From an uncultured Actinomycetota bacterium (GTDB taxonomy: Bacteria; Actinomycetota; Thermoleophilia; RBG-16-64-13), in contig CAWJKE010000006.1 in the NCBI GenBank assembly GCA_963843455.1, positions 5,510 through 69,509 of the forward strand: 64,000 bases of DNA, written 5' to 3'. Under the pieces are notes generated by a model. The model was not told where the DNA came from, made no database searches, and saw nothing but the letters and a program-made list of their open reading frames with translations. Made by a program: the position numbers and the translations under genes. Of the stretch, positions 2,975 through 36,563 are shown one piece after another. Every line of letters starts with the position of its first letter. Position 1 is the first letter of the stretch.

Positions 2975-2977
2975 TCG

Positions 2978-6022: not shown

Positions 6023-6046
6023 TCTCGGACGGGAGGTAGTCGCCCC

Positions 6047-7750
6047 ATGAAACTGCCCGGTATCCTCAAGCGCTTGAAACCCAACCCGAAGACAGCTCGC
6101 CCGGACGTGGTCGCGGGCGTCGTCCTTGGAGTGGAGAGCGTGCCCGACGCCCTCGCCTCGGGCGTGCTCGCGGGGGTCAATCCGCTCTATGCCTTGTACG
6201 CGGTCATGATAGCCACGCCGGTAGGAGCCATCTTCTCCGGTTCGGTGTATTTGAGCGTCCAGACCACCAGCGCCATGTCGCTCGTGGTCGCCAGCGTCGC
6301 GGTTGTCACGAGCGGCGGCTCCCCCGGCACGCTCTTCGCGCTCTCGATCATGACCGGGGTGATCATGTTGGCGGCCGGCTTCCTGAAGGCGGGCCGACTT
6401 CTGCGCTGGGTGCCCAATTCGGAGATGGTGGGTTTTATGACCGGGGTGGCCTTTCTCATCATCCTGGGTCAGTTGGGCGACCTCACCGGGTACTCGAGCG
6501 AATACAGCAATAAGGTCGCCAAGACCGTGGATCTGCTATTCAACCTCGACAAGGTCGATCTCCCGACCGTCGCGGTGGGAGTCGGCACGATCATCCTCAT
6601 CATCGTGTTGCAGAAGACCCGCCTCCGCGGGTTCGGCCTGGTGGTGGCTATCATCGTGGCCTCGATGCTCCCGGCGCTCTTCAGCTGGGATTCCGTGGCC
6701 AAAGTCTCGGACATCGCCGAGATCACGGGCGGGCTGCCTCGACCGGCTCTGCCGGATTTCTCGCAGTTCTTCCGGCTCATTGTGCCGGCGCTTTCCCTGA
6801 CTGTCATCGGGCTGATCCAGGGCGCCGGGGTGAGTCAAGCGTTTGTGAACCCCGATGGACGATACCCCAATCCCTCGCGGGACTTCGTAGGGCAAGGAGC
6901 GGCCAACGTGGCCGCAGGTCTCATTCAGGGCATGCCGGTCGGGGGGTCGGCCTCCGCGACCGCCCTGATCGTCAGCAGCGGGGCGAGGACGCGGCTCGCG
7001 AACATCGTTGCCGGTGTAGTGATTGCCGTGGTCACGCTGCTCTTCTCCGGGGTGGTGGGCAAACTCGCCCTCCCTGCCCTCGCAGGCCTGCTTATGGTCG
7101 TCGGCTTTGGGATCATCAAGCCCGCCAACATAGGCGCCGTGTGGCATACGGGCAACATCCAGCGGATCATCATGATCATCACCTTCGCCCTAGTCTTGCT
7201 GATCCCACTCCAATACGCTGTGCTGGTGGGGGTGGCTCTCTCCATCTTCCTGTTCAGCGTGCGCCAATCCCAGCGGATCGTAGTGGTGGAGTGGAAGCTC
7301 AAGGAAGGCAGGCTTCCCATCGAGCAGAAGGTCCAGGCCACGATTCTGCCGAGGAGCGTCACGGTGCTGGTTCCCTACGGGAGCCTCTTCTACGCCGCCG
7401 CTCCGGCCTTTGAGGAGAAGCTGCCAAAGATCGACTCCCGGACGAGCCACTCGGTGGTGATATTCAACCTTCACAGCCGCACGGATTTGGGCAGCACCTT
7501 CATGCGTACCATCGATCGATACGCCGAGGACCTCAAGAAGCACGACAGCCGTCTCATGCTGGCGGAGGTCGATCCTGCGCTCAAGGAGCAGTTGGCGCGG
7601 GCAGGCATAGTGGCTTCGATCTCGCGCCGGAGCATATTCCTGCAGACCGAAGAGGTCGCGGGGTCGCTCTACGAAGCCCATGCTGCCGCCGAGGAATGGG
7701 TCTCCCAGCAGGCGCCCGAAGGTGGCGAGCCGCCCGCGCCCGACGCCTAG
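6047..7750 (+). CDS. SulP family sulfate/inorganic anion transporter with C-terminal STAS domain
   Basis: 567 aa; N-terminal VVAGVVLGVESVPDALASGVLAGVNPLYALY matches SulP signature; C-terminal STAS-like domain; GGGAGG RBS. Confidence 0.85.
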   Translation: MKLPGILKRLKPNPKTARPDVVAGVVLGVESVPDALASGVLAGVNPLYALYAVMIATPVGAIFSGSVYLSVQTTSAMSLVVASVAVVTSGGSPGTLFALSIMTGVIMLAAGFLKAGRLLRWVPNSEMVGFMTGVAFLIILGQLGDLTGYSSEYSNKVAKTVDLLFNLDKVDLPTVAVGVGTIILIIVLQKTRLRGFGLVVAIIVASMLPALFSWDSVAKVSDIAEITGGLPRPALPDFSQFFRLIVPALSLTVIGLIQGAGVSQAFVNPDGRYPNPSRDFVGQGAANVAAGLIQGMPVGGSASATALIVSSGARTRLANIVAGVVIAVVTLLFSGVVGKLALPALAGLLMVVGFGIIKPANIGAVWHTGNIQRIIMIITFALVLLIPLQYAVLVGVALSIFLFSVRQSQRIVVVEWKLKEGRLPIEQKVQATILPRSVTVLVPYGSLFYAAAPAFEEKLPKIDSRTSHSVVIFNLHSRTDLGSTFMRTIDRYAEDLKKHDSRLMLAEVDPALKEQLARAGIVASISRRSIFLQTEEVAGSLYEAHAAAEEWVSQQAPEGGEPPAPDA

Positions 7751-11436: not shown

Positions 11437-11549
11437 GAGATCCTCCCTGTTCTGTACTGGCCCTTGAGTCTGAGGGATTCGGTGATGCGGCCCTAGCGAC
11501 GCCTCGCGGTCCGCCGGGGGCGGTGGCCGATGGGGTGCGGAATAGCCCC

Positions 11550-13043
11550 TCAGTGCCCCTTGCTGCTCTGCGCTTCCTCCAGTTGGCGCATCACTGCTTC
11601 CAGGTTGAACGACGCCGGCTTCTGGCGAGGCGGGAACTTAACGAAGTCTTCGATCTGCGCCGCCACCAACGCCTGCATGCCGTAGATCATGAAGGCGTGG
11701 TCGAGCATCCAGTCCCAGTAGGTGTTCGAATTCTCGTCGGCCCGCTCGAACGGGTCGCGGCGAAGGTTGAATATCTTGGGCACGCGCAGAGGCACGAATG
11801 GCTCAGCCCAACATTGTAGCCGCGTCGCACGCTGCTCCATAAGCACGGCTTTCCAGTCCAGGTACCGGATGGCCAGGGTGTCCCCGTCATCGCTGATGTA
11901 GAAGAAGAACTTGCGGGGACTCTCCTCGACCTCACCGGTGAGATAGGGGAGCATGTTGTAGCCGTCCAGGTGGACCTTGAAGGTCTTGTCGCCGGCCACG
12001 TGCCCGTCGAGCAGCTTTTCTTTGATGTTCGGATCGCCCGCGACTGCTGCAAAAGTCGCCGCCCAGTCCTGATGAGTGACGATGCCGTTGAGAACGGTGC
12101 CCGCCTTGAACTTGCCGGGCCAGCGCACGAAGGCCGGCACACGCCAGCCGCCTTCCCAGTTGGTGTTCTTCTCGCTGCGGAACGGGGTGATGCCGGCGTC
12201 CGGCCAACTGTTGTAGTGCGGTCCATTGTCCGTGGAGTACATGACGATCGTGTCCTCCGCGATGCCCAGTTCATCGAGCTTGTCCAGCATCCGTCCGATA
12301 TTCTCGTCGTGGGCGACCATCACGTCGTTGTAGTCTCCCTGGCCGCTCTTGCCCTTGTGCTTGTCGGCGCAGTGGGTGCGGAAGTGCATGGCCGACGTGT
12401 TGTACCAGAGGAAGAACGGCGTGCCGGCGCCGTGAGACCGGTCGATGAAATCGAGCGCGTGCTCCGTGACCTCGTCGTCGATGGTCTCCATACGCTTCTT
12501 GGTGAGCGGCCCGGTGTCCACGATCCTCTGTCCACCCTTGCCGTCGGCCCAGCAGTGCAGCACGCCTCTGGGGCCGAAGCGCTGCTTGAAGGCGGGGTCC
12601 TTGGGATAGTCAGGGAGTTCCGGTTCTTCCTCAGCGTTGAGATGGTAGAGGTTGCCGAAGAATTCATCGAAACCGTGCAGGGTGGGCAGGAACTCGTCCT
12701 TGTCGCCCAGGTGGTTCTTGCCGAACTGACCGGTGGTGTAGCCGTGAGGCTTGAGTAGCTCGGCGATGGTGGGATCTTGTGGCTGCAAACCGAGGTCCGC
12801 TCCGGGCATCCCAACCTTGGTCAGGCCGGTGCGAATGGGATTCTGGCCGGTGATGAAGGCCGCGCGTCCGGCGGTACAGCTCTGCTGGCCGTAGTAGTCG
12901 GTGAAGGCGATGCCTTCGTTGCCGATCCGGTCGATGTTGGGCGTCCGATAGCCCATCTGGCCCCGGCTGTTGTAGCTGATGTTCCACCATCCGATGTCGT
13001 CTCCCCACAAGATGAGAATGTTCGGCTTCCGCTGCTCTGCCAT
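11550..13043 (-). CDS. sulfatase (Cys-type, variant C-X-A-X-R motif)
   Basis: 497 aa; ILILWGDDIGWWN...QQSCTAGRAAFITGQNP: sulfatase signature with Ala instead of Pro at +2; GGGGGAG RBS. Confidence 0.85.
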   Translation of the reverse strand: MAEQRKPNILILWGDDIGWWNISYNSRGQMGYRTPNIDRIGNEGIAFTDYYGQQSCTAGRAAFITGQNPIRTGLTKVGMPGADLGLQPQDPTIAELLKPHGYTTGQFGKNHLGDKDEFLPTLHGFDEFFGNLYHLNAEEEPELPDYPKDPAFKQRFGPRGVLHCWADGKGGQRIVDTGPLTKKRMETIDDEVTEHALDFIDRSHGAGTPFFLWYNTSAMHFRTHCADKHKGKSGQGDYNDVMVAHDENIGRMLDKLDELGIAEDTIVMYSTDNGPHYNSWPDAGITPFRSEKNTNWEGGWRVPAFVRWPGKFKAGTVLNGIVTHQDWAATFAAVAGDPNIKEKLLDGHVAGDKTFKVHLDGYNMLPYLTGEVEESPRKFFFYISDDGDTLAIRYLDWKAVLMEQRATRLQCWAEPFVPLRVPKIFNLRRDPFERADENSNTYWDWMLDHAFMIYGMQALVAAQIEDFVKFPPRQKPASFNLEAVMRQLEEAQSSKGH

Positions 13044-13195
13044 CGTGGTCTCCCCCTTGAACGCAGAATCACTGCAAGACGCGAAACTCTCGCCACTAGG
13101 GCGACTAATCCGATGCCAATATCCATCTTACACGCGGGACAGGCGCCACCGCGGCGATCGGTGCCGAGAGCCCCCGTCTCGACCCATTTACTCGG

Positions 13196-14470
13196 TCACA
13201 CCCCGTGGCACCTCTTGAACTTCTGGCCACTACCACAGGGGCAGAGGTCGTTACGCCCGGCCCGGGCGAATGCCGCCGCAAGTTGTTGGTCTTCTTTGGC
13301 CAGCACGGCCGTGACCCCGTCGGCCGGCAGGCCCCGCCTGAGAAGGTCGGCCATGATCCGCATCGGGTGTTCGGTGTGGGCGAAGAACTCCTGGAGCCCC
13401 TCGCACAGCCAGTTGAGACCTGGTTCGCCCTCAAGCGTGGTGAGGACCCGGTTCTTGGGGCACTCTCCGTTACAGGTGAACAGCCAGCGGCACTCACGGC
13501 AGAGACCGGGGAGCGAGTCCGCCTTGGCCGCGCCGAAACCCCGCTGCCTCTCTGAATCGAGCAAGTCGCCGAGGGGCGCTTCCAGGATGTTGCCCAGCAG
13601 GTAATTCGGCTCCACGTAGTGATCGCAAGAATAGACGTCGCCGTTGTGCTCGAGCGCCACTCCCTCGCCACACGTGGGGCTGAGCACGCACACGCTCGAG
13701 TAGCCGCGCACATAGGAGGCCAGGACGCCGTCAAAGAACAGAACGAAGGTCTTGCCTACATCCCGGCGGACCCACTCGTCGAAGATCTCCATCAGGAAGC
13801 GCCCGTACTGCGCCCCTTCGACCGAGCGGTCGGTGATGGACGTCCCCTCCTGATCGCCTGTCTCGTTGTCGCGCTCGACGATGGGGATGAACTGGATGTA
13901 GTGGGCGTCGAGGTCATCACGGAAGAAGTGGTAGACCTCAAGGGAGTGGTGGCTGTTCACCGCGTTCACCGTGCAGAGGATGTTGAACTCCACCTGATGC
14001 TTCTGAAGCAGCCGGACGGCGGCGACGACCTTGTCGAAAACCGAGCCGCCCCGCCTGTCCCGCCGATAGGCGTCGTGCAAGTCGCGGGGTCCATCCAAGC
14101 TCAGCCCGACCAGAAACTTCTCGTCGTGTAAGAACTCACACCATTCGTCGTCCAGAAGTACGCCGTTGGTCTGGAAGGTGTTCTCCACCGTCACGCCGGG
14201 CGGCGCGTACCGCCTCTCCAGCTCCACAGCTCTGCGGAAGAAGCCAACACCCATGAGTGTCGGCTCGCCACCCTGCCAGGCGATGGTGACCTCGGGAACC
14301 TGATGCGCCTCGATGGTCTGCCGGATGTAGGCTTCGAGCACCTGTTCCGACATCCGGAAGGCGCTGCCCGGATAAAGCCGCTCCTTCTTCAGAAAGAAGC
14401 AGTAGGCGCAGTCGAGGTTGCAGCGCGCGCCTGTAGGCTTAGCCATGGTATGAAAAGCGCGAGGGGTCAC
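13196..14470 (-). CDS. anaerobic sulfatase-maturating enzyme (radical SAM, SPASM domain)
   Basis: 424 aa; AKPTGARCNLDCAYCFF CxxxCxxC radical-SAM motif, GGEPTLMG, C-terminal Cys clusters of SPASM type; C-terminal CPCGSGQKFKRCHG SEC-C-like motif; alternative ATG start at 14446. Confidence 0.85.
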   Translation of the reverse strand: MTPRAFHTMAKPTGARCNLDCAYCFFLKKERLYPGSAFRMSEQVLEAYIRQTIEAHQVPEVTIAWQGGEPTLMGVGFFRRAVELERRYAPPGVTVENTFQTNGVLLDDEWCEFLHDEKFLVGLSLDGPRDLHDAYRRDRRGGSVFDKVVAAVRLLQKHQVEFNILCTVNAVNSHHSLEVYHFFRDDLDAHYIQFIPIVERDNETGDQEGTSITDRSVEGAQYGRFLMEIFDEWVRRDVGKTFVLFFDGVLASYVRGYSSVCVLSPTCGEGVALEHNGDVYSCDHYVEPNYLLGNILEAPLGDLLDSERQRGFGAAKADSLPGLCRECRWLFTCNGECPKNRVLTTLEGEPGLNWLCEGLQEFFAHTEHPMRIMADLLRRGLPADGVTAVLAKEDQQLAAAFARAGRNDLCPCGSGQKFKRCHGV

Positions 14471-14505
14471 TGGCTCATTCTACCTGCTGCCGTGCCGCGC
14501 TTCTG

Positions 14506-15333: not shown

Positions 15334-15440
15334 TGTTCGGCTCTCCTCCAATGCGGTCCTAGTCCCGGAAGCACAATATCAAGACTGAGTGATAGTGTTG
15401 CCGGTGGCTACCGAGCGACGGGCGATCAAGCGGGGCAAGA

Positions 15441-16220
15441 ATGAGCCAACCTTTTGACCATCTTCCACTGTGGGCCGTCTACCCCCTGACGGTGGTGCTG
15501 ATGCTGGCGGCCGTGGAGGCGGGCTATCACTACGGCAAGGCAAGACGTCGGGCGGTTGCCGAGGGATCGGACGAGGGACTCGGCGCCATCTCCGGGGCCA
15601 CTCTTGCGATACTGGCCTTTCTACTCGCGTTCGTGATCGGCTTCGGCATGAATCTCAACGGCGATCGCCGCGCTCTGGTCATCGATGAGGCGAACGCCAT
15701 CCGCAGCACCTACCTGAGGGCCGGTTATCTCGTGGATCCCTATCGGACCGACACGCGGGATCTGCTGAGCCAATATCTTGATCAGAGGGTGGCCGCGACA
15801 CAGCCGGGAAAGGTGGAGCAGGCCAAGCTCCGCTCGGAACAGATACAAGGGCAGTTGTGGGCCGTCGCGGAGAAGTACGTCCTTGACGTCGACAAGTCGG
15901 ACACCGTCAGCGCTTACGTCGATTCGCTGGACCAGGTGATTGCCCTGCACAACGAACGAGTGGTCAAGGGCCTGCAGGCACGCATGCCGCCGCCCATCGT
16001 GTGGGCGATGTACGCCATCAGCCTGATAGCCATGTTCTTGGCCGGCATGCAGAGCGGATACGCTCCGCACCGCAGCATCGCGGCCCTCGTCCTGATGGTC
16101 TTGGTCTTCTCGGCCGTCTTGTACCTGGTGCTCGACATGGATCGTTCTCAGGAGGGCCTGATAAGGATCTCCCAGCAGCCGTTGATCGACCTTCAGAGCG
16201 TCATGGGCGGCCTGCCCTGA
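15441..16220 (+). CDS. DUF4239-like membrane protein (hypothetical)
   Basis: 259 aa, two N-terminal and two C-terminal TM helices with soluble middle; family assignment from memory only. Confidence 0.4.
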   Translation: MSQPFDHLPLWAVYPLTVVLMLAAVEAGYHYGKARRRAVAEGSDEGLGAISGATLAILAFLLAFVIGFGMNLNGDRRALVIDEANAIRSTYLRAGYLVDPYRTDTRDLLSQYLDQRVAATQPGKVEQAKLRSEQIQGQLWAVAEKYVLDVDKSDTVSAYVDSLDQVIALHNERVVKGLQARMPPPIVWAMYAISLIAMFLAGMQSGYAPHRSIAALVLMVLVFSAVLYLVLDMDRSQEGLIRISQQPLIDLQSVMGGLP

Positions 16221-16291: not shown

Positions 16292-17197
16292 TTGATAGCC
16301 CTAGGCACGCTCCCCCTCATTTGGGGGTTCAGTTGGGTGCCGCTCAAGATCGGCGTCGAGTACTGCCCTCCGTTCACCTTCGCGGCGCTGCGCAGCCTGC
16401 CTGGCGCCATCCTTCTGCTTGCGCTGGCTGCCATCCTCCGACGTCCACTGGGGCTGAAAGCTCCCAGATACACCATTCCGCTGGGTATTCTCCAGACAAG
16501 CGGGTTCATTGGACTCACCATAGCCGCCCTGGTGGCCGGCGGGGCCGGCCGCACGGCCATCCTCGCGAACACCTGGCAATTCTGGATACTGCTGATGGCC
16601 TGGCCTATCTTGGACGAGAGGCTGCACGGGTCACAGTGGCTCTCAGTTGCGCTGGCCCTGGCCGGTCTTGTCCTGATCGTCGCGCCCTGGAATCTCCACG
16701 GCATCGTGAGCAGCCTGCTGGCTCTGGCGGGCGCGGTCTGCTGGGCGGCGGGATCGATCGTCGCGAAACTCCTCCGGCGGCGGCACCAGGTGGATCTGCT
16801 GGCGCTGACGGGCTGGCAGACGCTCTTTGGGTCGATCCTGCTCGTACTCGTGGCGGTCTTCGTCGAGGGCGAATCGCCCGAGTGGTCGAGCGCCTTCATC
16901 TGGTCGCTCCTGTATGCCTTGCTGGTTGGGACCTGTCTCGCATCGTTCCTGTGGCTGTACGTTCTGCGCGAGATGCCGGCCAGCATCGCTGGTCTGGGGA
17001 CCATGGCGACGCCTGTGGTGGGTCTGCTCTTTTCTTGGGCCCTTTTGGGCGAGCAGCCTACCGGCCTCGAGGTCGTGGGGATGGTCGCTATCCTGGCAGG
17101 CTCGGCGCTCCTGTTTGCACGGGCCGTGCGCGATGATCCCGGCGTGTCCGCCCCGCCGGCCGTCGCAGGGCGGGGCGGACAGGCGGGTTCCCCCTAG
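16292..17197 (+). CDS. EamA/DMT-family transporter
   Basis: 10 TM helices in two EamA repeats (LIALGTLPLIWGFSWVPLKIG...); start uncertain (TTG 16292 chosen; track ORF extends to 16001 over previous gene). Confidence 0.65.
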   Translation: MIALGTLPLIWGFSWVPLKIGVEYCPPFTFAALRSLPGAILLLALAAILRRPLGLKAPRYTIPLGILQTSGFIGLTIAALVAGGAGRTAILANTWQFWILLMAWPILDERLHGSQWLSVALALAGLVLIVAPWNLHGIVSSLLALAGAVCWAAGSIVAKLLRRRHQVDLLALTGWQTLFGSILLVLVAVFVEGESPEWSSAFIWSLLYALLVGTCLASFLWLYVLREMPASIAGLGTMATPVVGLLFSWALLGEQPTGLEVVGMVAILAGSALLFARAVRDDPGVSAPPAVAGRGGQAGSP

Positions 17198-18900
17198 CCC
17201 AAAGGTTCGGCGAAGTCCTCCGACAAGATCGCCCGCGACAGGAATCCTCCCGAGAGATCTCGTGCTTTGAACCCATTCTGCAGCAAAATGCGGGTGGCAT
17301 AGTAGGCCCGCTGGCCCGAGCGGCAGATCACCAGGATCTCCCGGTCGCGCGGCAGCTCATCCAGACGAGAGCGAAGCTGACCCAGCGGGATGTTCACCGC
17401 GTCCGGCGCCTGCTCAACCGCCAGTTCCGCCGGCTCCCGCACGTCGAGTAGGAAGGCTCCATCGATCGAGTCCCAGTGGCTCAGCGGCATGTCGCCTCTG
17501 AGGACGTCAGCCGCCACCATGCCGGCGAAGTTCACGGGATCCTTCGCGCTTCCGAACGGAGGCGCGTAGCAGAGTTCCGCTTCTTCCAGGTCGTAGATCG
17601 TTGCGCGCATCTGCAGTGCCATGGCCAAGACGTCTATCCGCTTGTCGACGCCGTCCTCGCCGAGCGCCTGCGCTCCCAGCAGGCGCCCATCGGACTTCCT
17701 AAAGATGACCTTCATCGCGATGGGCTTGGCGCCCGGGTAGTAACCGGCATGGGAGTTCGGGTAGATGTAGATCTTCTCGTAGTCGACCGCGCCCCGCCGC
17801 TGCAGCGTCTTTTCGGAGACGCCGGTCCAGGCGATGGTCGCCCCGAACAGTCCGATGACCGAAGTCCCCTGAGTGCCTCGATAACGGGAGTCACGCCCCG
17901 CGATGACGTCCGCGGCGATGCGGCCCTGCCGGTTGGCCGGTCCGGCAAGCGCCACCAGTCCCCACTCGCCCGTGACGTAGTCCTTCACTTCGACCACGTC
18001 GCCCACGGCGAAGATATCCGGATCGCTCGTCTGCATGTGCTCGTCCACGCGGATGCCGCCCCGTTCCCCCAGCTCCAGCCCCGCCGTTTTCGCCAATGCG
18101 GTGTCGGGGCGCACGCCGAGCGAGAGGATCACGATGTCGGCCGGATGGACCGCTCCTGACCTGGTCTCCACCTCGAGGCCGCCGTCGGTGGTCGGTCTGA
18201 ATCCGGCCACGCCGTCGCTCAGCGCCAGTCGCACGCCGTGCTTCTTGAGGTGCGCTTCGACGATCCGCGCGTTCTCCGGATCGATCGGGGGAAGGACGTG
18301 GTCGAGCATCTCCAGCAGCGTCACCTCGAGGCCACGTTGCACCAGGTTCTCCGCGGTCTCAAGGCCGATAAAACCGCCTCCCACCACGACCGCCCGGACC
18401 TTGGGCCGCTTCACCTGGTAGCTAGAATAGGCGCTCATGCCCGCCAGGAACCCGCTGCCCCTTTCGAGCCATTCGCGGATCTGCCTTGCATCGGGTACAG
18501 TGCGCAACTGAAAGATCCCCGGCAGGTCGATGCCTGGAAGCGGTGGGCGGATGGACACCGCTCCGGGTGACAGCACCAACTTGTCGTACGCTTCGGTGAT
18601 CACCTGGCCAGTCTCGAGATCCTTCAGATCCACGGTCTTTTTGTCGGGCGAGATGCCCACGGCCTCCCAACTCGTCCGCGCGTCGATCCCGAACGTCGTG
18701 CGGAAAGTCGCAGCGCTGGCCACAAGGAGCTTCGCCTCGTCAGCGATCACGCCCCCGACGTGGTAGGGCAACCCGCAATTGGCGTAAGACATGTATCGGC
18801 CGCGCTCCACCATCAAGATCTCGGCAGTCTCGTCCAGCCGGCGGAGGCGCGCCGCGCACGAGGCTCCCCCGGCCACTCCACCTACGATGATGACCTTCAC
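17194..18900 (-). CDS. CoA-disulfide reductase / NADH-dependent persulfide reductase family (pyridine-nucleotide-disulfide oxidoreductase with C-terminal rhodanese domain)
   Basis: 568 aa; KVIIVGGVAGGASCA FAD fold, active-site Cys in YANCGLPY, C-terminal rhodanese domain with ICRSGQRAYYA; GAAGGAGA RBS. Confidence 0.85.
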   Translation of the reverse strand: MKVIIVGGVAGGASCAARLRRLDETAEILMVERGRYMSYANCGLPYHVGGVIADEAKLLVASAATFRTTFGIDARTSWEAVGISPDKKTVDLKDLETGQVITEAYDKLVLSPGAVSIRPPLPGIDLPGIFQLRTVPDARQIREWLERGSGFLAGMSAYSSYQVKRPKVRAVVVGGGFIGLETAENLVQRGLEVTLLEMLDHVLPPIDPENARIVEAHLKKHGVRLALSDGVAGFRPTTDGGLEVETRSGAVHPADIVILSLGVRPDTALAKTAGLELGERGGIRVDEHMQTSDPDIFAVGDVVEVKDYVTGEWGLVALAGPANRQGRIAADVIAGRDSRYRGTQGTSVIGLFGATIAWTGVSEKTLQRRGAVDYEKIYIYPNSHAGYYPGAKPIAMKVIFRKSDGRLLGAQALGEDGVDKRIDVLAMALQMRATIYDLEEAELCYAPPFGSAKDPVNFAGMVAADVLRGDMPLSHWDSIDGAFLLDVREPAELAVEQAPDAVNIPLGQLRSRLDELPRDREILVICRSGQRAYYATRILLQNGFKARDLSGGFLSRAILSEDFAEPLG

Positions 18901-19415
18901 GGCTGTCTCCTTCCCATCTGTCTGATGATGTCCTCGACGATCCGATCCACCGGTAGCGCGGCGTCAATTGTCAGCGCTTCGGCAGGTTCCTCCAGGTCCT
19001 CGAACTGGCTCTTGAGCAACTCCGCTCTCATGTAGTGCCCGGTGCGGGCGGCCATGCGCGGCAGGATCAGTTCATAGTTGCCCCTCAGGTAGACGACCTC
19101 AGTCTCTGAGTTCCCCGCCAGCAGCGCTTGCCGGTAGCGTTCCTTGAGGGCGGAGCACGCTAGGACACCGGGAGTCTGGCGTGCCAGGCACGAAGCTATC
19201 AAGTCGTGCAGAGAGCACAGCCACGGGGCCCGATCGTCGTCGTCGAGAGCGATGCCCGCAGCCATCTTGGCTACGTTCTCCGGCGGGTGGAAGTCGTCCG
19301 CTTCGTAGAAGTCCCATCTCAGGCGTAGCGCCAACGCCCGACCCACCGTGCTTTTGCCGGACCCCGACACGCCCATAACGATGAGAAAGCGCGGGCTCGA
19401 GATGTGCTGCGACAA
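18897..19415 (-). CDS. gntK: gluconokinase (GntK, shikimate-kinase-like P-loop kinase)
   Basis: P-loop VMGVSGSGKSTVG and GntK-like downstream motifs; start placed at TTG 19415 just after upstream stop (track start 19484 overlaps upstream gene by 62 nt); alternative ATG 19376. Confidence 0.7.
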   Translation of the reverse strand: MSQHISSPRFLIVMGVSGSGKSTVGRALALRLRWDFYEADDFHPPENVAKMAAGIALDDDDRAPWLCSLHDLIASCLARQTPGVLACSALKERYRQALLAGNSETEVVYLRGNYELILPRMAARTGHYMRAELLKSQFEDLEEPAEALTIDAALPVDRIVEDIIRQMGRRQP

Positions 19416-19422
19416 CGACGGC

Positions 19423-20079
19423 TCATTTCCCCGATTGCTGGAGATCGAGCTGACGCACGAGCGCGCGGGCCGGCGCGCCGTCACCTCCAGCGATCTTCAA
19501 GGGGAGACAGATGAGTTCCACCGGACCGGGCGCCACGTCTTTCAAGTACAGCCCCTCGATTATCCAGACGCCGGCTTTGAGCAGGGCTTGGTGGGTTTCG
19601 ACGCCGTCGGCGCTGAAGCCACCGACTGACAGGTAGTCGATCCCTACTAGCCCCACTTGCCGCTCCACCAGATACCGCGCCGCCGCCGCCGAAAGGTACA
19701 CGAAGTCCTCCGCGAAGGCGCTGGTCTCCCAGGGGCCAGCGGAATTGCGGGTCTTGAAGAGGATCCGTTCGCCGGGCCGGATCTGGTGCCGAGCTAGCTC
19801 GTCGATCTTGATGGACTCGGGGTCGTCGATGGCAACAACCCGGGCGGGGCCGAGGGCGGCATTGACGGGCATCCGGTCGATACCGACGCCACTGGCCACG
19901 AAGTGCGCCGGCGCGTCCATATGGGTGCCGGCGTGAGCGCCCATCTCCAAGAGCGAGAGCGTACACGGGTCGCCCCGCTCTATCTCCAGCACGTGGCTGA
20001 TCCGGGCGACCGGATCGCCCGGCCAACCGACCATGCCGTTTCTGAGCGTCACCGAGACGTCTATCCAGGGTGGAGTCAT
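19423..20079 (-). CDS. cyclase-family protein (kynurenine formamidase-like metal hydrolase)
   Basis: 218 aa; GAHAGTHMDAPAHF HxGTHxDxPxH motif. Confidence 0.75.
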   Translation of the reverse strand: MTPPWIDVSVTLRNGMVGWPGDPVARISHVLEIERGDPCTLSLLEMGAHAGTHMDAPAHFVASGVGIDRMPVNAALGPARVVAIDDPESIKIDELARHQIRPGERILFKTRNSAGPWETSAFAEDFVYLSAAAARYLVERQVGLVGIDYLSVGGFSADGVETHQALLKAGVWIIEGLYLKDVAPGPVELICLPLKIAGGDGAPARALVRQLDLQQSGK

Positions 20080-20099
20080 CGCTGCCTCTCTTCGGTGAT

Positions 20100-21194
20100 T
20101 CAGCCGATGGTGATGACGTTCTTGATCCCGCCGGGGGTGAGTACCGCATCGCGGGCGTCGTTGAGCGGCGTACGGGACGTGATCAGATCACGAACAGCTG
20201 TGGGAAAGGTCTGCATAAACCAGCCAAGGTCGTCGACGGCTTCCTCGAAAGAAGCACGCCCTGCGTTGACCGTGCCGCAGATCACGTGGTTGTCGAGCAC
20301 CGCGTTCCGCATGATGCGCCTCGCATCGATCTCCACAGGTTCGCCCATCGCCGGCACCCCGGTGGTCATGAAGATGCCATTGACGCCAAGCACGCTCAGC
20401 GCGCCGAAAAACACGCTGACGATGCCGGTGGCTTCATACATGAGGCTTATGTTGCCGACGATCTTCGCCAGGTCTGTGGGGGGGTGCTCGGCTGCAGAGA
20501 CGAATCGGGCGCCGATACCCTCCACGACACTCACATTCGAACTATCGGACTTGTCCATGGAGTACACCCACGTGTTGAAGCCGCCCCTCAGGAGCTTCAT
20601 GGCCCCCAGCAAGCCGATGGGGCCGGCTCCCAGTACCACCGCGTTGAGGTTGCTGGGATCGTTCTTCAGATCGCCGGGCAGACGCTGCGTCAGGACGCGC
20701 ACCTGTTCCGCGGCCTTCTCCGCTACGGTGAGCGGTTCTATGAGGACGGCCACGTCGCGCAGTTCCCTCGGCACCTTCACGACATATTCCTCGTCGTCGA
20801 CGACGAACTCGGTCATGTAGCCGTGGATCCCTTTGATGCCCCGCTCGGTGAAATCGCCGGTGATGCAGAAATCCTGCCGGCCGTGGCGACATGGGGTACA
20901 GCGCTCATGTGGACACGGTCGGCGCACCGTCAAGACCGCGAGGTCGCCGGGCGCCAAGCCCGCGACCCCACTTCCCACTTCGGTGACTACGCCCAGCACT
21001 TCATGGCCGATGATCAGGTAGGGCGAGCCGGCCGGCGGCGCTCCATACGCGAACGAGGTGATCTCGCGGTCGGTGCCGCAGATGCCGGCTTCGAGTATGC
21101 GAAGCTTGACGTCGGCCGGTCTGTCGATCGCCGGCTCTGGGTGATCGATCAGCCGAGTCTCACGATTCGAAGGAAACACGGCCAGTGCTTTCAT
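20100..21194 (-). CDS. zinc-dependent medium-chain dehydrogenase (glucose/threonine dehydrogenase-like)
   Basis: 364 aa; GICGTDREI and GHEVLGVV zinc-ligand motifs, Rossmann GAGPIGLLG. Confidence 0.8.
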   Translation of the reverse strand: MKALAVFPSNRETRLIDHPEPAIDRPADVKLRILEAGICGTDREITSFAYGAPPAGSPYLIIGHEVLGVVTEVGSGVAGLAPGDLAVLTVRRPCPHERCTPCRHGRQDFCITGDFTERGIKGIHGYMTEFVVDDEEYVVKVPRELRDVAVLIEPLTVAEKAAEQVRVLTQRLPGDLKNDPSNLNAVVLGAGPIGLLGAMKLLRGGFNTWVYSMDKSDSSNVSVVEGIGARFVSAAEHPPTDLAKIVGNISLMYEATGIVSVFFGALSVLGVNGIFMTTGVPAMGEPVEIDARRIMRNAVLDNHVICGTVNAGRASFEEAVDDLGWFMQTFPTAVRDLITSRTPLNDARDAVLTPGGIKNVITIG

Positions 21195-21781
21195 CCTGTC
21201 TCACCTTTCGTACGGATGCCGTCCCAGATGATGCGGTCGAGCTCGCGCATCGCCTGTTCTGAGGCGAATCCGCAGGCCGTCATCACCCGCTCGTCACGCA
21301 CCACGAATGCGGCCTGCCTCAAGACGTGCGCGAGAAAGCAGGTGTTCACCGGTTCGATCTCGCCCGCCATCACGGCGTCGTCGAGGAGCGCGGCGAACCG
21401 ATCGACAAAACGGTCGGATCCACTTCGATATGCCAGCCGGATAGAGTCGAAGCGCTCGACGTCGGCGCGAAAGGCGGGAGATAGCTGGCGGATGTGCTCC
21501 GCTGCGTCCTGCCAGTAGATGCGCGCCCTCTCTACGGCGGTCGCACCCCGAACGGCGCGAGTCTCCATGTCCTCCAGGTTGCGGTCGAACCAGCTGGTGA
21601 CGGCGAGCACGATGAGGCTGTCCTTACTAGCCGCGATTTTGTAGAGCGACGAGGCCGAGCAGCGGAGTTCGTGGGCAATCTCTGAGACCGTGATCTCGGA
21701 AAAGCCGCGGGCCGCGATGATCGCCATGACCCCATCGAGCAGTTCCTGGCGGCGTTCGTCGTCGAAACGTTTGCGCGCCAT
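21191..21781 (-). CDS. TetR/AcrR family transcriptional regulator
   Basis: 196 aa; N-terminal HTH ITVSEIAHELRCSASSLYKIAASKDSL; start overlaps downstream gene (ATGA). Confidence 0.85.
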   Translation of the reverse strand: MARKRFDDERRQELLDGVMAIIAARGFSEITVSEIAHELRCSASSLYKIAASKDSLIVLAVTSWFDRNLEDMETRAVRGATAVERARIYWQDAAEHIRQLSPAFRADVERFDSIRLAYRSGSDRFVDRFAALLDDAVMAGEIEPVNTCFLAHVLRQAAFVVRDERVMTACGFASEQAMRELDRIIWDGIRTKGETG

Positions 21782-21856: not shown

Positions 21857-21901
21857 TTGACCGAGGATTTCAACAGTCCCGCAACAACACAGGAGGAAGG
21901 C

Positions 21902-22450
21902 ATGGCTATCGGTCCGGTACAACTACTGGTGATTGGATTCGACTCCCCGGAATTCAGGGGCGAGGCACTCAACGAACTCGAGCGGCTCCGCGAGAGTAAC
22001 GCGGTCAGGGTCATCGACGCGCTTGCGCTCTACAAGGACCCTGAGGGCGAGATGACTGTGATGCGCATCAGCAACCTGACCCAGGATGAGTCCATCGAGT
22101 TCGGCGCCAAAGTGGGCGCCCTCATCGGCCTTGGTGCGGCCGGCGCGGAAGGCTTCGTCGCCGGAGCCGAGCTAGGCGCTCTGGCCGGCGAAGACGGCAT
22201 CGAGATCTTCTCCGACGAGACGGCGGCGGACATCCTCGAGGATATCCCGAACGATTCGGCTGTGGCCCTCGTGCTCCTCGAGCATCACTGGGCGATCCCC
22301 CTGCGGGATGCCATATGGCGTGCCGGCGGGTTCAATCTGGCGAGTAGCTTCATCAGGCCGCGCGACCTCGTCGCCATCGGCCTCGTCAGCGCCTTGGAGG
22401 CCGAGGAGTTGGCCGCGCTCGAGATGGGCGACGAGGAAGACGAAGACTAG
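21902..22450 (+). CDS. conserved hypothetical acidic protein (unassigned DUF; paralog fragment at 25006)
   Basis: ATG 21902 immediately after AGGAGGAAGG (track start 21857 lacks RBS); MAIGPVQLLVIGFDSPEFRGEALNELERL...; Gly-zipper middle, acidic tail MGDEEDED. Confidence 0.5.
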   Translation: MAIGPVQLLVIGFDSPEFRGEALNELERLRESNAVRVIDALALYKDPEGEMTVMRISNLTQDESIEFGAKVGALIGLGAAGAEGFVAGAELGALAGEDGIEIFSDETAADILEDIPNDSAVALVLLEHHWAIPLRDAIWRAGGFNLASSFIRPRDLVAIGLVSALEAEELAALEMGDEEDED

Positions 22451-22471: not shown

Positions 22472-23095
22472 TCAGACGATAGACGCCGGGGCCGGCCGGG
22501 CTTGCCCGGCCGGCCCCGGCGTGCGCCGGACCCCATCCCAGATGATGGTGTCCATCTCCATTAGAGCCTCTCGAGCCGTGAGACCGGCTCGGTCGAGAAG
22601 ATCTTCATCGCGCACCGCCATGGCCACGTATCTGAGCATGCCGACCAGGAAGGTGGGGTTCACGTGACGGATCTCGCCCGCCTCCGCTGCTTCCGACACA
22701 AGTTCTGAGAAGCGGTCGATGAAGCCATCGGATATGGTTCGCCACGTCTGTCGCGTCGCCGAGAAGCGCTCCACGTCACGCCGGAACTCGTGCGACAACT
22801 CTCGGGTCCTTTCGGATCCCGCACCGTAGTAAGTCCGAGCCCGGTCCGATGCAGAGGAGCGTTCTAGCGAGCGAGACTCCGCCTCGGAGAGCGTGTCCTT
22901 ACCCCATCGCTCGAGTGCGAGGGATACGAGGTCGACCTTGGTCGGGGCCAACTTGTAGAGCGTGGCCACCGAACAGTGAAGGCGGCACGCGAGGTCGGCC
23001 ACCTTCAGCTCAGCGAAACCCTCAGCTGAGGCGATACGCATCAACCCGTCGAGGAGTTCCTCTCTACGGCCGTTCTTCAGTCGGGTGCGCGACAA
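22472..23095 (-). CDS. TetR family transcriptional regulator (paralog of 21191..21781)
   Basis: HTH LKVADLACRLHCSVATLYKLAPTKVDL, shared C-terminal IIWDGVRRT/IIWDGIRT motif with first TetR; TTG start after GGAGAAGGA (track start 23140). Confidence 0.75.
   Translation of the reverse strand: MSRTRLKNGRREELLDGLMRIASAEGFAELKVADLACRLHCSVATLYKLAPTKVDLVSLALERWGKDTLSEAESRSLERSSASDRARTYYGAGSERTRELSHEFRRDVERFSATRQTWRTISDGFIDRFSELVSEAAEAGEIRHVNPTFLVGMLRYVAMAVRDEDLLDRAGLTAREALMEMDTIIWDGVRRTPGPAGQARPAPASIV
22485..22520. terminator. perfect 16-bp GC-only hairpin (GCCGGGGCCGGCCGGG-CTTG-CCCGGCCGGCCCCGGC) between convergent genes
   Basis: Seen directly; lies 35 nt after stop of 21902..22450 and within the last codons of the minus-strand TetR paralog; no U tract (typical for high-GC taxa). 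Confidence 0.5.
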
Positions 23096-23165
23096 TCGTC
23101 CTTCTCCAGACCGGGAGGAGTTCCCCAGGGTCCAACTCACAGGGGCCTCTCAGTCATTGTACCTC

Positions 23166-23210
23166 TCTCAGTTTAGTATTAGAATCAGTCACTTGTTACT
23201 AATGTACGCT
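23166..23210. promoter_or_regulatory. AT-rich island with imperfect inverted repeat TTAGTA-N18-TACTAA: candidate TetR operator in divergent promoter
   Basis: TTAGTA at 23173-23178 and TACTAA at 23197-23202 inside TCAGTTTAGTATTAGAATCAGTCACTTGTTACTAATGTACG, the only AT-rich stretch for kilobases. Confidence 0.45.
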
Positions 23211-23288
23211 ATCGGAGTCTCGAGTCGTCTCCGGCGACCGGGCCGGTTGGCAGCGAAAGTTCGAGGAATCGTGTGAAAGGACTTGGCG

Positions 23289-24455
23289 ATGGCTAAAGCA
23301 GAACGGGTAAGCACCACGGTGCCGCTGAACTGGAAAGAGGTGTGGTTCACCAACTGCCCGATGGTGTCGGCCAACAACGTTGACCAGGAGTTGGGGTGGT
23401 GCCGCGAGGAGTTCAAGAAGATCGGTGTCGAATACGCCTACTTCCGCCACGCACCCGAGAACAACTGGTACCCGCACTATATTCATAACCTCGACAACCT
23501 GATCCGCTTCGGCGGCCTCTATCCGCCCATCCACGTCAACGCCGACATCCGCCGCACCCGGTTGCTTGGCGCGACCTGGGTGTACGAAGGCGGCTGCATG
23601 GCCGTGCGTGCCCGCGACAGCATCTTCCGCATGAAGGATCTCAAAGGCAAGAAGATCGGCATCTCGAAGAGCCTGAACACCATCAAGAACGATTGGTGGC
23701 GTATCCAGGAGCACATGGGCATCACCAACATGCTGATGCTGAACGACATGACCATGGACGACATCGAACTCGTCGAGTTCCCCTATCCGGACGATTGGTA
23801 CGACAAGCCCGAGATGCTCACCCCGCCCATGAACAACCCATCCGAGCTGTGGATGCGTCGTGACCACAAGCACGATCTAGCCTTCCGGCCACTGGAAAAA
23901 GCCCTGCTTGGCGGCATTGTCGACGCCATCTACACACAGAGCAAGGTGTTCCAGCATCTGCAGGAGGCGACAGGTCAGATCAAGATGATCGAGGACCTGA
24001 CCCGCTATCCGGACTGGACCGTTCAGGTCGCCAACACTCCCGCCGTCATCACTTGCACTGACGTGATGGCTAACGAGCACCCTGAGTTGGTGGTCGCCTA
24101 TATGAAGGCCATGGTCAAGGTGGGGCGTTGGGCCAACGAGAACAAGCATGCCGCGGGAGCGATCCTCAACCGACAGACGTTCTATCTGGATGCCGAGGAT
24201 ACGTACGAGGGCATCAAGGACGTCGACATGGTGCCGAGCCTGAGCGCGCAGAATCTGCAGTGCGTCACGATCGGCAAGGACTTCATGCTCAGCCACGGCT
24301 ACATCAAGAACGACTTCGATGTAAACGCCTGGGCGGCGCCGGAATTCCTGGAGCAGGCGGCAGTCGAGGTTCTCAAGGAAGAATGGCAGAGAAGAAGCTG
24401 GAGCAAGCTTCCTCAGGGCGGTGGGCTCGAGGTGGAAGGTACGCGGCTCGGGTAG
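23289..24455 (+). CDS. DszB-like desulfinase family protein (2'-hydroxybiphenyl-2-sulfinate desulfinase homolog; NMT1/SsuA-like periplasmic-binding fold, no signal peptide)
   Basis: ATG 23289 after AAAGGA. FTNCPMVSAN aligns with DszB catalytic SNCPVPNA (Cys27). HNLDNLIRFGGLYPP...RTRLLG aligns with HFTYDQPAYTRFGGEIPP...RTRLLG (His60, Arg70). C-terminal NAWAAPEFL matches DQWAAPEFL. The DszB sequence is recalled from memory. Confidence 0.6.
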   Translation: MAKAERVSTTVPLNWKEVWFTNCPMVSANNVDQELGWCREEFKKIGVEYAYFRHAPENNWYPHYIHNLDNLIRFGGLYPPIHVNADIRRTRLLGATWVYEGGCMAVRARDSIFRMKDLKGKKIGISKSLNTIKNDWWRIQEHMGITNMLMLNDMTMDDIELVEFPYPDDWYDKPEMLTPPMNNPSELWMRRDHKHDLAFRPLEKALLGGIVDAIYTQSKVFQHLQEATGQIKMIEDLTRYPDWTVQVANTPAVITCTDVMANEHPELVVAYMKAMVKVGRWANENKHAAGAILNRQTFYLDAEDTYEGIKDVDMVPSLSAQNLQCVTIGKDFMLSHGYIKNDFDVNAWAAPEFLEQAAVEVLKEEWQRRSWSKLPQGGGLEVEGTRLG

Positions 24456-24473
24456 CCGGGAGGAGATGACTCT

Positions 24474-24977
24474 GTGACCGATCACCAAGTCCCCGAAAAG
24501 AAGCAGACCGTCCTAGGCCTGTACGTCACGGCCGAAGAGGCCTATGAGATGTGGAAAGCGGACCCTGACGGCGTCAAGATCCTCGACGTGCGTATACCCG
24601 AGGAGTACCTCTTTGTGGGCCATCCGCGGATGGCCAGGAACATCCCTCTCCTTTTCGTGAAATACGGCTGGGACTCTGAGAAGAACCAACCGGTGGTGAC
24701 GCCCAACGCGGATTTCGCCTCCGCCGCGATCAAAGCTTTCGATCCCGGCGACACGCTGCTGGTGATGTGCCGCTCGGGGGGCCGTAGCGCGCTGGCCGTC
24801 AACGGCCTCGCGAAGGTCGGTTTCACCAAGGCCTACAACATCATCGACGGTTTCGAGGGCGACAAAGTGGACGATCCGGGCAGTGCCTACCTTGGCAAGC
24901 GGATGAGGAACGGCTGGAAAAACTCCGGATCGCCGTGGACCTACGACGTCGACCCGGACCTGCTGTGGCTTTCGTGA
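24474..24977 (+). CDS. rhodanese-domain protein (single-domain sulfurtransferase)
   Basis: 167 aa; active-site loop MCRSGGRSA; GGAGGAG RBS before GTG. Confidence 0.8.
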   Translation: MTDHQVPEKKQTVLGLYVTAEEAYEMWKADPDGVKILDVRIPEEYLFVGHPRMARNIPLLFVKYGWDSEKNQPVVTPNADFASAAIKAFDPGDTLLVMCRSGGRSALAVNGLAKVGFTKAYNIIDGFEGDKVDDPGSAYLGKRMRNGWKNSGSPWTYDVDPDLLWLS

Positions 24978-25005: not shown

Positions 25006-25213
25006 ATGCTGGACCTTCCGCTGGAATACGCTCTGATCGAGTTCAAGGATGCCAAGTTTCGGGCGAGATAATCCCCGAACTCCTCGATCTCTCCGCACGC
25101 GGCATCGTGCGCTTCGTGGACATCGTCCCGTCCGAGGGGTTGGTGTTGGACGCCGCAACGGCGTCGGGCTGCTGCGTTAGCCGGCGCCGGCGCAGGGAAC
25201 TGGGAGCGCCGTG
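25006..25213 (+). pseudogene. frameshifted N-terminal remnant of a paralog of the 21902..22450 gene
   Basis: AAAGGAGAGG RBS + ATG. MLDLPLEYALIEFKDAKFR then stop; the +1 frame continues GEIIPELLDLSARGIVRFVDIV..., which aligns to MAIGPVQLLVIGFDSPEFRGEALNELERLRESNAVRVIDAL. One G missing in a GGG run restores the frame. Ends at the BASS gene start. Confidence 0.5.
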
Positions 25214-26098
25214 ATGACCGCCGAGTCCTTTTTCACCGCCGTTGCCACGTTGTCAGGCTTGTTATTCGTCGTCGCAAGCATGCTGGGGACCGGGTTGAGC
25301 CTGAGTGTGAGCCAGATCGTGCGACCGTTGAAGAACATCCCCCTGGTGATCGTCGCCTTGGTGGCCAATTTCGTGCTGGTGCCGCTTCTCGCCTGGGGCA
25401 TCACCAGCCTGATCACCCTGGACGAGCCTCTCAAGATCGGGCTAGTCGTGCTGTCCACCGTGGCAGGCGCGCCGTTCTTGGTCAAGGAGGTCCAGGCCGC
25501 CAAGGGCGACCTGGCCTTGGGCGTCGGCTTGATGTTTCTGATGATGGTCGTGACTATCGCCTATGTGCCCCTCGTTCTTCCGAGGCTCATTTCCGATGTC
25601 GAGGTCGACGCGTGGGCGATCGCAAAGTCGCTGATCGTGACCATGCTCGTTCCCATCGTCGTGGGCCTGCTCTGGAAATCGCATTCGGGGGAGAGCGCCA
25701 AGAACTGGGCGCCGATCATGAACAAGATCTCCGGTATCTCGCTGCTCCTCCTGCTGGTGACCGGACTGGGCCTGAACATCTCGAACATCATCAGCCTGAT
25801 CGGCTCGCGCGGCTTCCTGGCTCTGATCCTCTTCGTCATCGGATCGCTCGTCATCGGGTTCGTGCTGGGCGGCCGCAATCCGGCGACCCGCAGCGTGCTG
25901 GGTCTGGGTACGGCGCAGCGCAACGTGGCGGCCGCCATTCTCGTAACCAGTTTGAATTTCTCCGGAACGATGACGCTCCCGTACGTGCTGGTGGCCGCCA
26001 TCCTTTTGCCGGTGATCTTGATTCCGGCAGCGCGGATGCTCGGCAAGCGTCGCGAGGCCTCAGTCGCCGCGGGCGCCGGCAGCCAGGATCCGCAGTAG
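25211..26098 (+). CDS. bile acid:sodium symporter (BASS/ACR3-like) family transporter
   Basis: 295 aa, about 8-9 TM helices, LVPLLAWGITSL and TVAGAPFLV segments reminiscent of SBF family. Confidence 0.6.
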   Translation: MMTAESFFTAVATLSGLLFVVASMLGTGLSLSVSQIVRPLKNIPLVIVALVANFVLVPLLAWGITSLITLDEPLKIGLVVLSTVAGAPFLVKEVQAAKGDLALGVGLMFLMMVVTIAYVPLVLPRLISDVEVDAWAIAKSLIVTMLVPIVVGLLWKSHSGESAKNWAPIMNKISGISLLLLLVTGLGLNISNIISLIGSRGFLALILFVIGSLVIGFVLGGRNPATRSVLGLGTAQRNVAAAILVTSLNFSGTMTLPYVLVAAILLPVILIPAARMLGKRREASVAAGAGSQDPQ

Positions 26099-36495: not shown

Positions 36496-36563
36496 CCGCA
36501 GCGCCCAGACACGGCTCCCGGGGTGCTAGACTCAGCCGAAATCGACTACCGGGGGTATGTACA

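Follow-up and report, generated by a model that had tools for sequence, protein, structure and literature searches.

The 64,000-nucleotide (nt) stretch of DNA analysed here (the window; contig CAWJKE010000006.1 of assembly GCA_963843455.1, from an uncultured member of the Actinomycetota, Thermoleophilia, lineage RBG-16-64-13) encodes, at 23289..24455 on the + strand, a protein of 388 amino acids (aa) that almost certainly belongs to the superfamily of DszB, the 2'-hydroxybiphenyl-2-sulfinate (HBPS) desulfinase (also TdsB or BdsB; PDB 2DE2, 2DE3). A preliminary description had presented it as a stand-alone C-S-cleaving desulfinase paired with a rhodanese. The best explanation we can offer, and to which we give an even chance, is that it is a cytoplasmic enzyme of an uncharacterised, highly conserved DszB subfamily that forms a two-gene module with a single-domain rhodanese. 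Our preferred reading is a lyase or transferase of the DszB type whose substrate would be a small sulfur oxyanion and whose reaction would be linked to the handling of sulfane sulfur. The protein has the same fold and catalytic residues as DszB and differs from it in pocket, partners and distribution. The reported observation holds up and stands well above chance level, and the gene is not peculiar to one genome.

In a phmmer comparison with all PDB sequences, DszB was the sole match (2de2, E 9.7e-9), and the two proteins share 24-27% identity. C23, H63 and R73 align on DszB Cys27, His60 and Arg70, so the three catalytic residues of DszB named in the preliminary description are retained; the further blocks that it listed (RTRLLG, DLxGxKIGxS and WAAPEFL) are also common to both proteins, the second as DL.G..IG.S. 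The T21-N-C23-P motif (23349..23360, + strand, with the C23 codon at 23355..23357) is the equivalent of DszB S25-N-C27-P. Similarly, the segment H63-Y-I-H66 ... R73-F-G75-G76 (23475..23516, + strand) corresponds to DszB H60 ... R70-x-G-G, a motif whose Gly73 contacts the sulfinate. In an alignment that combined DszB and the window protein with 23 full-length relatives of 25-65% identity (25 sequences in all), the sole invariant columns are C23, H63, R73, G75, G76, G120, L149 and W348, which therefore define the superfamily. T21 and C23 are unchanged in 61 family members; T21 is a conservative replacement of DszB S25, which tunes H60, while H63 itself is invariant, and Cys27 of DszB acts as the proton donor (catalytic roles according to PMC6100217). 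The window protein has a DszB-like three-dimensional fold. A first AlphaFold run on 61 close homologs gave a confidence (pLDDT) of 72 with disordered active-site loops and was superseded by a run on a diverse alignment.

The residues that line the biphenyl pocket of DszB have not been kept. W155 lies in an insertion found in DszB only, which is missing from the window protein and from 23/23 of the other relatives; DszB F61 is replaced by Y64 and F203 by W188. DszB Y63 corresponds to H66, an invariant histidine in the family and in 21/23 relatives, which creates an H-x-x-H motif near the cysteine. The catalytic apparatus is thus conserved and the substrate pocket is not, and the substrate is probably different from that of DszB. 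The family also possesses an invariant lid segment that is peculiar to it (DDWYDKPEML..PMNNPSELW.RRDHKHD.AFRP), as well as an extended C-terminus, neither of which is a feature of DszB. In addition, its partner is a rhodanese instead of dszA and dszC, it occurs in anaerobes and archaea, and its conservation across phyla is about 90%. Luciferase-like monooxygenase and acyl-CoA-dehydrogenase-type genes are absent from the window, and neither kind is recurrent in the 79 genomic and 80 metagenomic related loci; the DszB-like gene therefore does stand alone with respect to dszA and dszC, as had been claimed. A DszB orthologue of the 4S dibenzothiophene pathway with its dszA and dszC elsewhere in the genome would explain why DszB is the best PDB match. 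The identity level, the missing W155 insertion, the lack of dszA/dszC in 64 kb and in the related loci, and the occurrence of the family in methanogens, Nitrospira and marine Synechococcus leave this with a negligible probability. Moreover, the 4S proteome peptides from Chelatococcus derive from a true Rhodococcus-type DszB and not from the window family.

Family entries carry a substrate-binding protein label in every database, and the possibility has to be weighed that this label is right in kind. As an SsuA/NMT1-type protein, orphan or cytoplasmic, it would serve as a solute binder, sensor or chaperone that binds a sulfonate-like ligand without catalysis and perhaps presents it to the rhodanese or to a transporter. 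Its fold is indeed of the periplasmic-binding-protein type II, and it gives weak matches to Pfam NMT1 (22.7 bits against a cutoff of 20.5, marginal and over 60 residues only) and to NCBIfam TIGR01728 SsuA_fam (48.6 bits, far below the cutoff of 163.5). However, enzymes of the same fold are well known (DszB, Thi5, MqnA/D and 4,5-dihydroxyphthalate decarboxylase), and the Cys/His/Arg set of DszB, invariant here, is missing in the SsuA, TauA, ThiY and NMT1 periplasmic proteins. The window protein, with the N-terminus MAKAERVSTTVPLNWKEVWFTNCP, has no Sec, Tat or lipobox signal peptide, and no N-terminal hydrophobic stretch was seen in 164 members of normal length (12-aa hydropathy maximum within the first 36 aa: median 0.53, max 1.49), so that a predicted cytoplasmic location is firmly supported. 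No permease or ATPase gene is present in the window, and no ABC or TRAP partner recurs in the 79 genomic and 80 metagenomic loci. An exhaustive HMMER search of 1.84 billion representatives returned no more than 972 relatives at E<=1e-3, including many fragments, and so small a number shows that the family does not merge into the very large SsuA/NMT1 population. Membership of the SsuA/ThiY/NMT1 families, which the preliminary description had named as the outcome that would overturn it, was thus looked for, and the protein is not a transporter binding protein. On these grounds we consider it very probably an enzyme, and a purely binding role very unlikely.

Two kinds of relative that bear on location depart from this pattern. 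P0351 (450 aa, 73% identical) is an exception among the members in having a canonical twin-arginine (Tat) signal, TRREALLAAGGIAAGAALV...AHA, which indicates that the folded protein is exported in at least one lineage; this also speaks for a binding role, as do paralogs of 40-45% identity that are found in ABC operons. The latter occur as 3-5 tandem copies together with an NMT1 binding protein, a permease and an ATPase (L084, 3649-11643; L085, 4107-10328), as well as with a SCO1/AhpC-TSA/CusF fusion, a nitroreductase and a porin, in Opitutaceae and on a metagenome contig. They are a different subfamily in a different context and constitute a second uncharacterised DszB-like system. A conserved N-terminal extension of 60-110 aa was observed in P0004, P0007, P0011, P0020-23, P0035, P0037, P0106, P0112, P0114, P0115, P0119, P0349 and P0380 (for example L088, 7001-8350). 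Its amphipathic helix (e.g., LTDGLALIAELLAAKPHLKDEIGEIAEL) leads into a linker rich in Lys, Ala and Pro. This architecture recalls the peptides that target or encapsulate proteins, and also tails that bind polyanions, but the neighbouring genes included none for a shell.

The single-domain rhodanese (24474..24977, + strand, 167 aa) begins with a GTG codon preceded by a putative ribosome-binding site, GGGAGGAG. It directly follows the DszB-like gene, as had been described, at a measured spacing of 18 nt from stop to start and not 19 nt; given this gap and the ribosome-binding site, the two genes are probably co-transcribed. The product matches PF00581 with 44.2 bits (cutoff 22.2, E 2.7e-11), and its active-site loop CRSGGRS (residues 99-105, 24768..24788) is intact and aligns with CRSGNRS of 2FSX, the nearest structure. 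We sampled the neighbourhoods of 79-80 genome loci and 80 metagenome loci. A rhodanese was found in 43/79 loci under strict operon criteria and in 49/79 anywhere in the locus, and the separate counts together range over 42-49 of 79-80 loci. The hosts belong to Actinomycetota, Chloroflexota, Proteobacteria, Cyanobacteria, Bacteroidota and Methanomicrobiales, so the pairing is real and is kept across phyla. Sulfite and sulfinates are sulfane-sulfur acceptors of sulfurtransferases (PMC7545470), which provides a chemical rationale for it, and a functional coupling of the DszB-like protein to the rhodanese is in our judgement highly likely. Rhodanese fusions were dropped as Rosetta-stone evidence, as most of the long forms are N-terminal extensions; P0013 is the sole partial rhodanese fusion, and the C-terminus of P0323 has no BLAST match to rhodanese.

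A second sulfane-sulfur enzyme is encoded at 17194..18963 (- strand), where a CoA-disulfide/persulfide reductase-rhodanese fusion (CoADR-RHD, of the Npsr/CoAPR type) combines Pyr_redox_2, dimerisation and C-terminal rhodanese domains. From its similarity to characterised persulfide reductases (3ICR, E 1e-165; 3NTA, 2e-148; 8A56, 9e-146) it is predicted to be of the CoA-persulfide/NADH-persulfide reductase type. This gene recurs in archaeal, Bacteroidota, Chelatococcus and Rhizobium loci. In one Methanomicrobiales locus the DszB-like gene is directly followed by genes for a zinc-dependent alcohol dehydrogenase (Zn-ADH), a cyclase and CoADR-RHD, in this order. The same four genes are found in the window at 17194..21194 and 23289..24455, and the functional island therefore exceeds the coordinates first assigned to it, which left out the CoA-persulfide reductase, cyclase, Zn-ADH, SBF, SulP and bestrophin-like genes. 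Single-domain rhodaneses and a CoADR-rhodanese are shared with the cst-type modules (E. faecalis CoAPR, 8A56; Shewanella Npsr, 3NTA), whereas no CstR/SqrR-type sensor, persulfide dioxygenase or SQR is recurrent in the related loci, and to our knowledge no described cst operon includes a DszB-like protein. The Npsr paper held nothing useful on SulP neighbours. On the Rhizobium leguminosarum bv. trifolii plasmid pRL22b1 (L093, 7942-10152), a member of 66% identity lies directly after a homocysteine S-methyltransferase and an amino-acid ABC transporter and faces a CoADR-rhodanese, with no adjacent single-domain rhodanese.

DszB homologs had been described as rare, which does not apply to this family. 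It comprises more than 3,000 sequence clusters at 90% identity, and in none of the top 120 does identity to the query fall below 79%. A copy is present in at least 493 GTDB species genomes. In the best 80 of these the protein is 86-95% identical to that of the window, and these genomes span Chloroflexia, Actinomycetota, Nitrospira, Ignavibacteria, Acidobacteriota and alpha-, gamma- and delta-proteobacteria, as well as the archaeal Methanosarcinales, Methanoregulaceae and Methanomicrobiales. Mis-binning is an unlikely source of the archaeal members, which come from four independent assemblies, one with a 906-kb contig, and have low-GC flanks; tRNA scans of the archaeal loci were uninformative. 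Cultured carriers include Chelatococcus, Aliisedimentitalea, marine Synechococcus and Rhizobium plasmids, and a plasmid search returned Rhizobium members at 66-69% identity and distant paralogs, and nothing else. Compatibility of the family with anaerobic life is firmly supported, and its presence in strict anaerobes and methanogens makes an aryl sulfinate produced by an oxygenase an unlikely substrate.

A recent spread does not account for the high identity. Identity is 91-97% at codon positions 1+2, whereas at fourfold-degenerate sites it is 0.44-0.62, the saturation level for this third-position GC; gene GC (0.50-0.665) partly tracks host GC (0.47-0.73), and flanking genes vary from locus to locus. 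Saturated fourfold sites, partly ameliorated GC and differing flanks together indicate an old divergence under extreme purifying selection, and recent horizontal transfer as the cause of the high identity was rejected on account of the saturation and the partial amelioration toward the host. Among 61 family sequences, 128/388 positions are invariant and 242/388 are at least 90% conserved. For the same genome pairs, the median identity is 88% for the DszB-like protein, 58% for the rhodanese, 34% for SulP, 58% for SBF and 70% for CoADR-RHD, the DszB-like protein being more conserved than its partners in 99-100% of the comparisons.

If the protein is a cytoplasmic sulfur-oxyanion enzyme, a small hydrophilic anion with a -SO2-/-SO3- type group would occupy the interlobe cleft. 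This anion might be sulfite itself, a sulfinate, or a compound of the thiosulfonate or thiosulfate type. To the proposition that the substrate is a sulfur oxyanion at all we give an even chance. The oxyanion would be held by R73-x-G75-G76 and H63, as DszB holds its sulfinate. C23, tuned by the H63-T21 dyad, would make or break the bond to the sulfur group; it would do so as a proton donor, as in DszB, or as a partner that is a thiolate or carries a persulfide. Sulfite and/or sulfane sulfur formed in this way would be exchanged with the rhodanese, in a direction that we can only infer, and would be reduced by the CoA-persulfide reductase where this is present. Anions would enter or leave via SBF/SulP/bestrophin-type transporters, and expression would be set by a local regulator, TetR in the window.

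Literal C-S desulfination appears doubtful. A genuine sulfinate desulfinase would cleave the C-S bond of a sulfinate other than HBPS (hypotaurine, cysteine sulfinate, 3-sulfinopropionate, or methane- or benzenesulfinate) by the Cys-proton mechanism of DszB (PMC6100217) and release SO2/sulfite, which the rhodanese would combine with persulfide to give thiosulfate. The full catalytic set of DszB is conserved, rhodaneses can take sulfite as an acceptor (PMC7545470), and anion exporters lie nearby. DszB chemistry, however, is an electrophilic aromatic substitution on an activated aryl carbon, and the aryl pocket insertion is missing here; the window contains no oxygenase that would generate a sulfinate, and none recurs among ~160 loci. 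The family is also found in methanogens and other anaerobes, for which an oxygenase route to sulfinates is closed, and its extreme conservation is unusual for a scavenging enzyme. The idea of a desulfinase acting on an oxygenase-derived sulfinate is weakened by the lack of an aryl pocket and of oxygenases in the window and by the methanogen occurrence, and we regard a desulfinase of this kind as unlikely. The proposal in the preliminary description that a desulfinase feeds sulfite to the sulfurtransferase seems, in addition, chemically loose, since the cargo of a rhodanese is sulfane sulfur and sulfite and sulfinates are acceptors.

A different context, outside the account given in the preliminary description, is found in related loci. 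On a plasmid of Rhizobium leguminosarum ATCC 14479, a member of 69% identity lies within the operon DLJ82_RS34390 to RS34350, with the order HGD-D x2, DszB-like, BcrAD ATPase x2, SBF, rhodanese x2, SulP and bestrophin-like. The interleaved HGD-D/DszB-like/BcrAD arrangement, in fixed order and accompanied by SBF and a 102-aa rhodanese, is also present in 11/80 metagenome loci. L004, which encodes the genomic relative closest to the window protein (95% identity), has it too, with a crotonase 3' of the DszB-like gene. The HGD-D/BcrAD subunits are nearest to the Bzd-type benzoyl-CoA reductase (BCR) and to double-cubane reductases, well below every equivalog cutoff, and are 70-90% identical among the Rhizobium plasmid, an Actinomycete metagenome-assembled genome and metagenome contigs. 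In ~12 related loci, the window not among them, a DszB-like gene lies inside a 2x HGD-D + 2x BcrAD set, which relates them to the family of class I (Bzd-type) BCR, 2-hydroxyacyl-CoA dehydratases (HAD) and double-cubane reductases; we know of no BCR, HAD or double-cubane enzyme described with a DszB-like or rhodanese partner. Uncharacterised four-subunit ATP-dependent enzymes of the BCR/HAD family are encoded in L092 (6484-11912), L004 (4729-8893), L094, L095, L099, L102, L103, L105, L107, L108 and L115, with two catalytic HGD-D pairs per ATPase pair in L094 and L095.

These loci suggest that a BCR-like, ATP-dependent, low-potential reductase could drive an organosulfur (or aromatic/unsaturated acyl-CoA) pathway that needs no oxygen, with the DszB-like protein as a component of the pathway or as an enzyme dedicated to a later step. 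The reductase would make the substrate, for example by converting a sulfonate to a sulfinate or by producing a dearomatised or reduced sulfur-bearing acyl-CoA, and the DszB-like enzyme would release the sulfur group; in genomes resembling that of the window the reductase would be encoded elsewhere or replaced. The conserved interleaving, the similarity of the subunits across phyla, the crotonase directly 3' of the DszB-like gene in 7-13 loci and the occurrence in anaerobes are all consistent with such a role. No HGD-D/BcrAD-type genes were found in the 64-kb window, however, and the reductase is absent from ~85-99% of the sampled loci; no CoA ligase or transferase is recurrent, the model alone gives no account of the rhodanese and CoAPR link, and the reaction is purely hypothetical. 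Literature searches (HAD + rhodanese, BCR + desulfonation) found no paper linking the BCR-like and DszB-like families. We rate this model as improbable, yet as a serious competitor of the favoured one. A broader idea, speculative and slightly less improbable, is that the DszB-like protein and the rhodanese are the core of an undescribed oxygen-independent sulfur pathway of bacteria and methanogenic archaea, driven in some genomes by the BCR-like reductase. If true, this could be, for example, a reductive desulfonation or desulfination, or a processing of sulfur oxyanions that no known enzyme carries out, and the near-invariance of the protein would reflect demanding chemistry or obligatory contacts with several partners.

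Several points weigh against the explanation that we favour, a DszB-type sulfur-oxyanion enzyme coupled to a rhodanese. With the W155-bearing hydrophobic insertion absent, the substrate of DszB is no guide here. The invariant H63-x-x-H66 and C23 could alternatively form a metal site, which is likewise an alternative to be taken seriously. About 30/79 loci have no rhodanese inside 10 kb, and the adjacency may stem in part from a shared regulon and not from a pathway, as the island consists largely of channels, transporters and stress-type genes. The further partners (crotonase, BCR/HAD-like reductase, Fe-S nitroreductase, Zn-ADH and cyclase) suggest organic or CoA-ester chemistry, which a pure inorganic sulfur-anion model does not explain. 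Finally, our literature searches (DszB + rhodanese, DszB-like, desulfinase homologs) found no paper on the window family.

The DszB-like gene has an ATG start preceded by GAAAGGA and is divergent from a TetR-like regulator (22472..23140, - strand); these two genes and the rhodanese gene are all present as the preliminary description had them. The regulator has a weak helix-turn-helix match (PF00440, 21.3 bits, cutoff 24) and is 44% identical to a paralog 1.3 kb away (21191..21781, - strand), which is above the cutoff at 27.6 bits. The intergenic region (23141..23288; 148 nt, 52% GC) contains an AT-rich island (23160..23215, 37.5% GC) and, inside it, the inverted repeat TTAGTA-N18-TACTAA (23173..23202). 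Both elements of the operator-like site reported earlier are thus present, but ~1-2 inverted repeats with 6-bp arms are expected by chance in 200 nt, and other TetR-linked loci have loose AGTA/TACT arms only; as a TetR operator the repeat is at most a candidate, being no better than chance and not conserved in those loci. No promoter or terminator signal above shuffle level was detected in the scans. Regulators vary by locus: besides TetR there are AraC, MalT/LuxR and two-component systems. TetR is thus one among several interchangeable regulators, a variety that an accessory module under inducible control would be expected to show.

Among the genes that recur in related loci are a MalT/LuxR regulator (33/79), SulP (22-27 of 79-80), a 92-aa small protein (17/79), CoADR-rhodanese (15-16 of 79-80), DUF6325 (15/79), SBF (14-16 of 79-80 genome loci, 10-11/80 metagenome loci and the Rhizobium plasmid operon), crotonase (10-13 of 79-80), a TetR of the same family located upstream (5-7 of 79-80) and an Fe-S nitroreductase (4/80 genome and 8/80 metagenome loci). 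In the window, an SBF (bile acid:sodium symporter family) anion transporter (25211..26098, + strand; PF01758, E 1.3e-15) is encoded 233 nt 3' of the rhodanese. Between the two, a DUF6325 remnant at 25007-25130 (+ strand) is frameshifted and truncated, reading MLDLPLEYALIEFKDAKFRAR* and then, in another frame, ..GEIIPELLDLSARGIVRFVDIV... An intact DUF6325-like gene (21857..22450, + strand), of a type that recurs in related islands, is divergent from the second TetR paralog, next to which lie the cyclase-family (PF04199) and Zn-ADH (Glu_dehyd_C type) genes (19423..21194, - strand).

The sulfur-related neighbourhood that had been reported was located in full. It comprises, besides the CoADR-rhodanese, two formylglycine-type sulfatases (9073..13127, - strand), an anaerobic sulfatase-maturating radical-SAM enzyme (anSME) with a C-terminal SEC-C motif (13196..14479, - strand) and a SulP transporter with Sulfate_transp and STAS domains (6023..7750, + strand). 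The last is distal to the DszB-like gene and only distantly related to the SulP found in operon with the module elsewhere. Sulfatases are present in 8/79 related loci too. A bestrophin-like (DUF4239) putative anion channel (15396..16220, + strand) has a homolog as the last gene of the Rhizobium plasmid operon. Genes for ion channels and transporters are unusually frequent in the flanks (2204-2974, 7747-9048, 14506-16220 and 31478-32629), which encode two K+-channel-like proteins, a Na+/H+ exchanger, the bestrophin-like channel and an AI-2E transporter. Related islands hold TMEM175-like channels, P-type ATPases, PPK2, SfLAP and DosR-like two-component genes, and together these flanks and islands suggest a regulon of the stress or dormancy type and not a single pathway. 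We also observed, at 2937-5153 (+ strand), a 738-aa open reading frame with an unusual fusion of a phage-holin-4-like domain of four transmembrane segments to a type I phosphodiesterase/nucleotide pyrophosphatase domain. A metallo-beta-lactamase-fold protein at 36333-37454 is a candidate persulfide dioxygenase relative, and a CysK/CysM-like pyridoxal-phosphate enzyme and a 2-oxoacid:ferredoxin oxidoreductase lie downstream (39505-40431 and 41406-43468).

Thousands of database entries are labelled "ABC transporter substrate-binding protein" where the evidence points to cytoplasmic DszB-type enzymes, and this annotation needs correction. The gene is accessory, yet it is under a constraint, across bacterial phyla and archaea, that is otherwise typical of core machinery only. 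Its association with sulfane-sulfur enzymes and anion transporters, and occasionally with an ATP-driven radical reductase, points to a step of the sulfur cycle in soil, sediment and marine environments that has so far gone unrecognised. DszB limits the rate of biodesulfurisation, and a natural, widespread relative with a different substrate scope and anaerobic compatibility would therefore be of interest to enzyme engineers. Because Rhizobium leguminosarum ATCC 14479, Chelatococcus asaccharovorans and Aliisedimentitalea scapharcae are cultured hosts, the question is directly testable.

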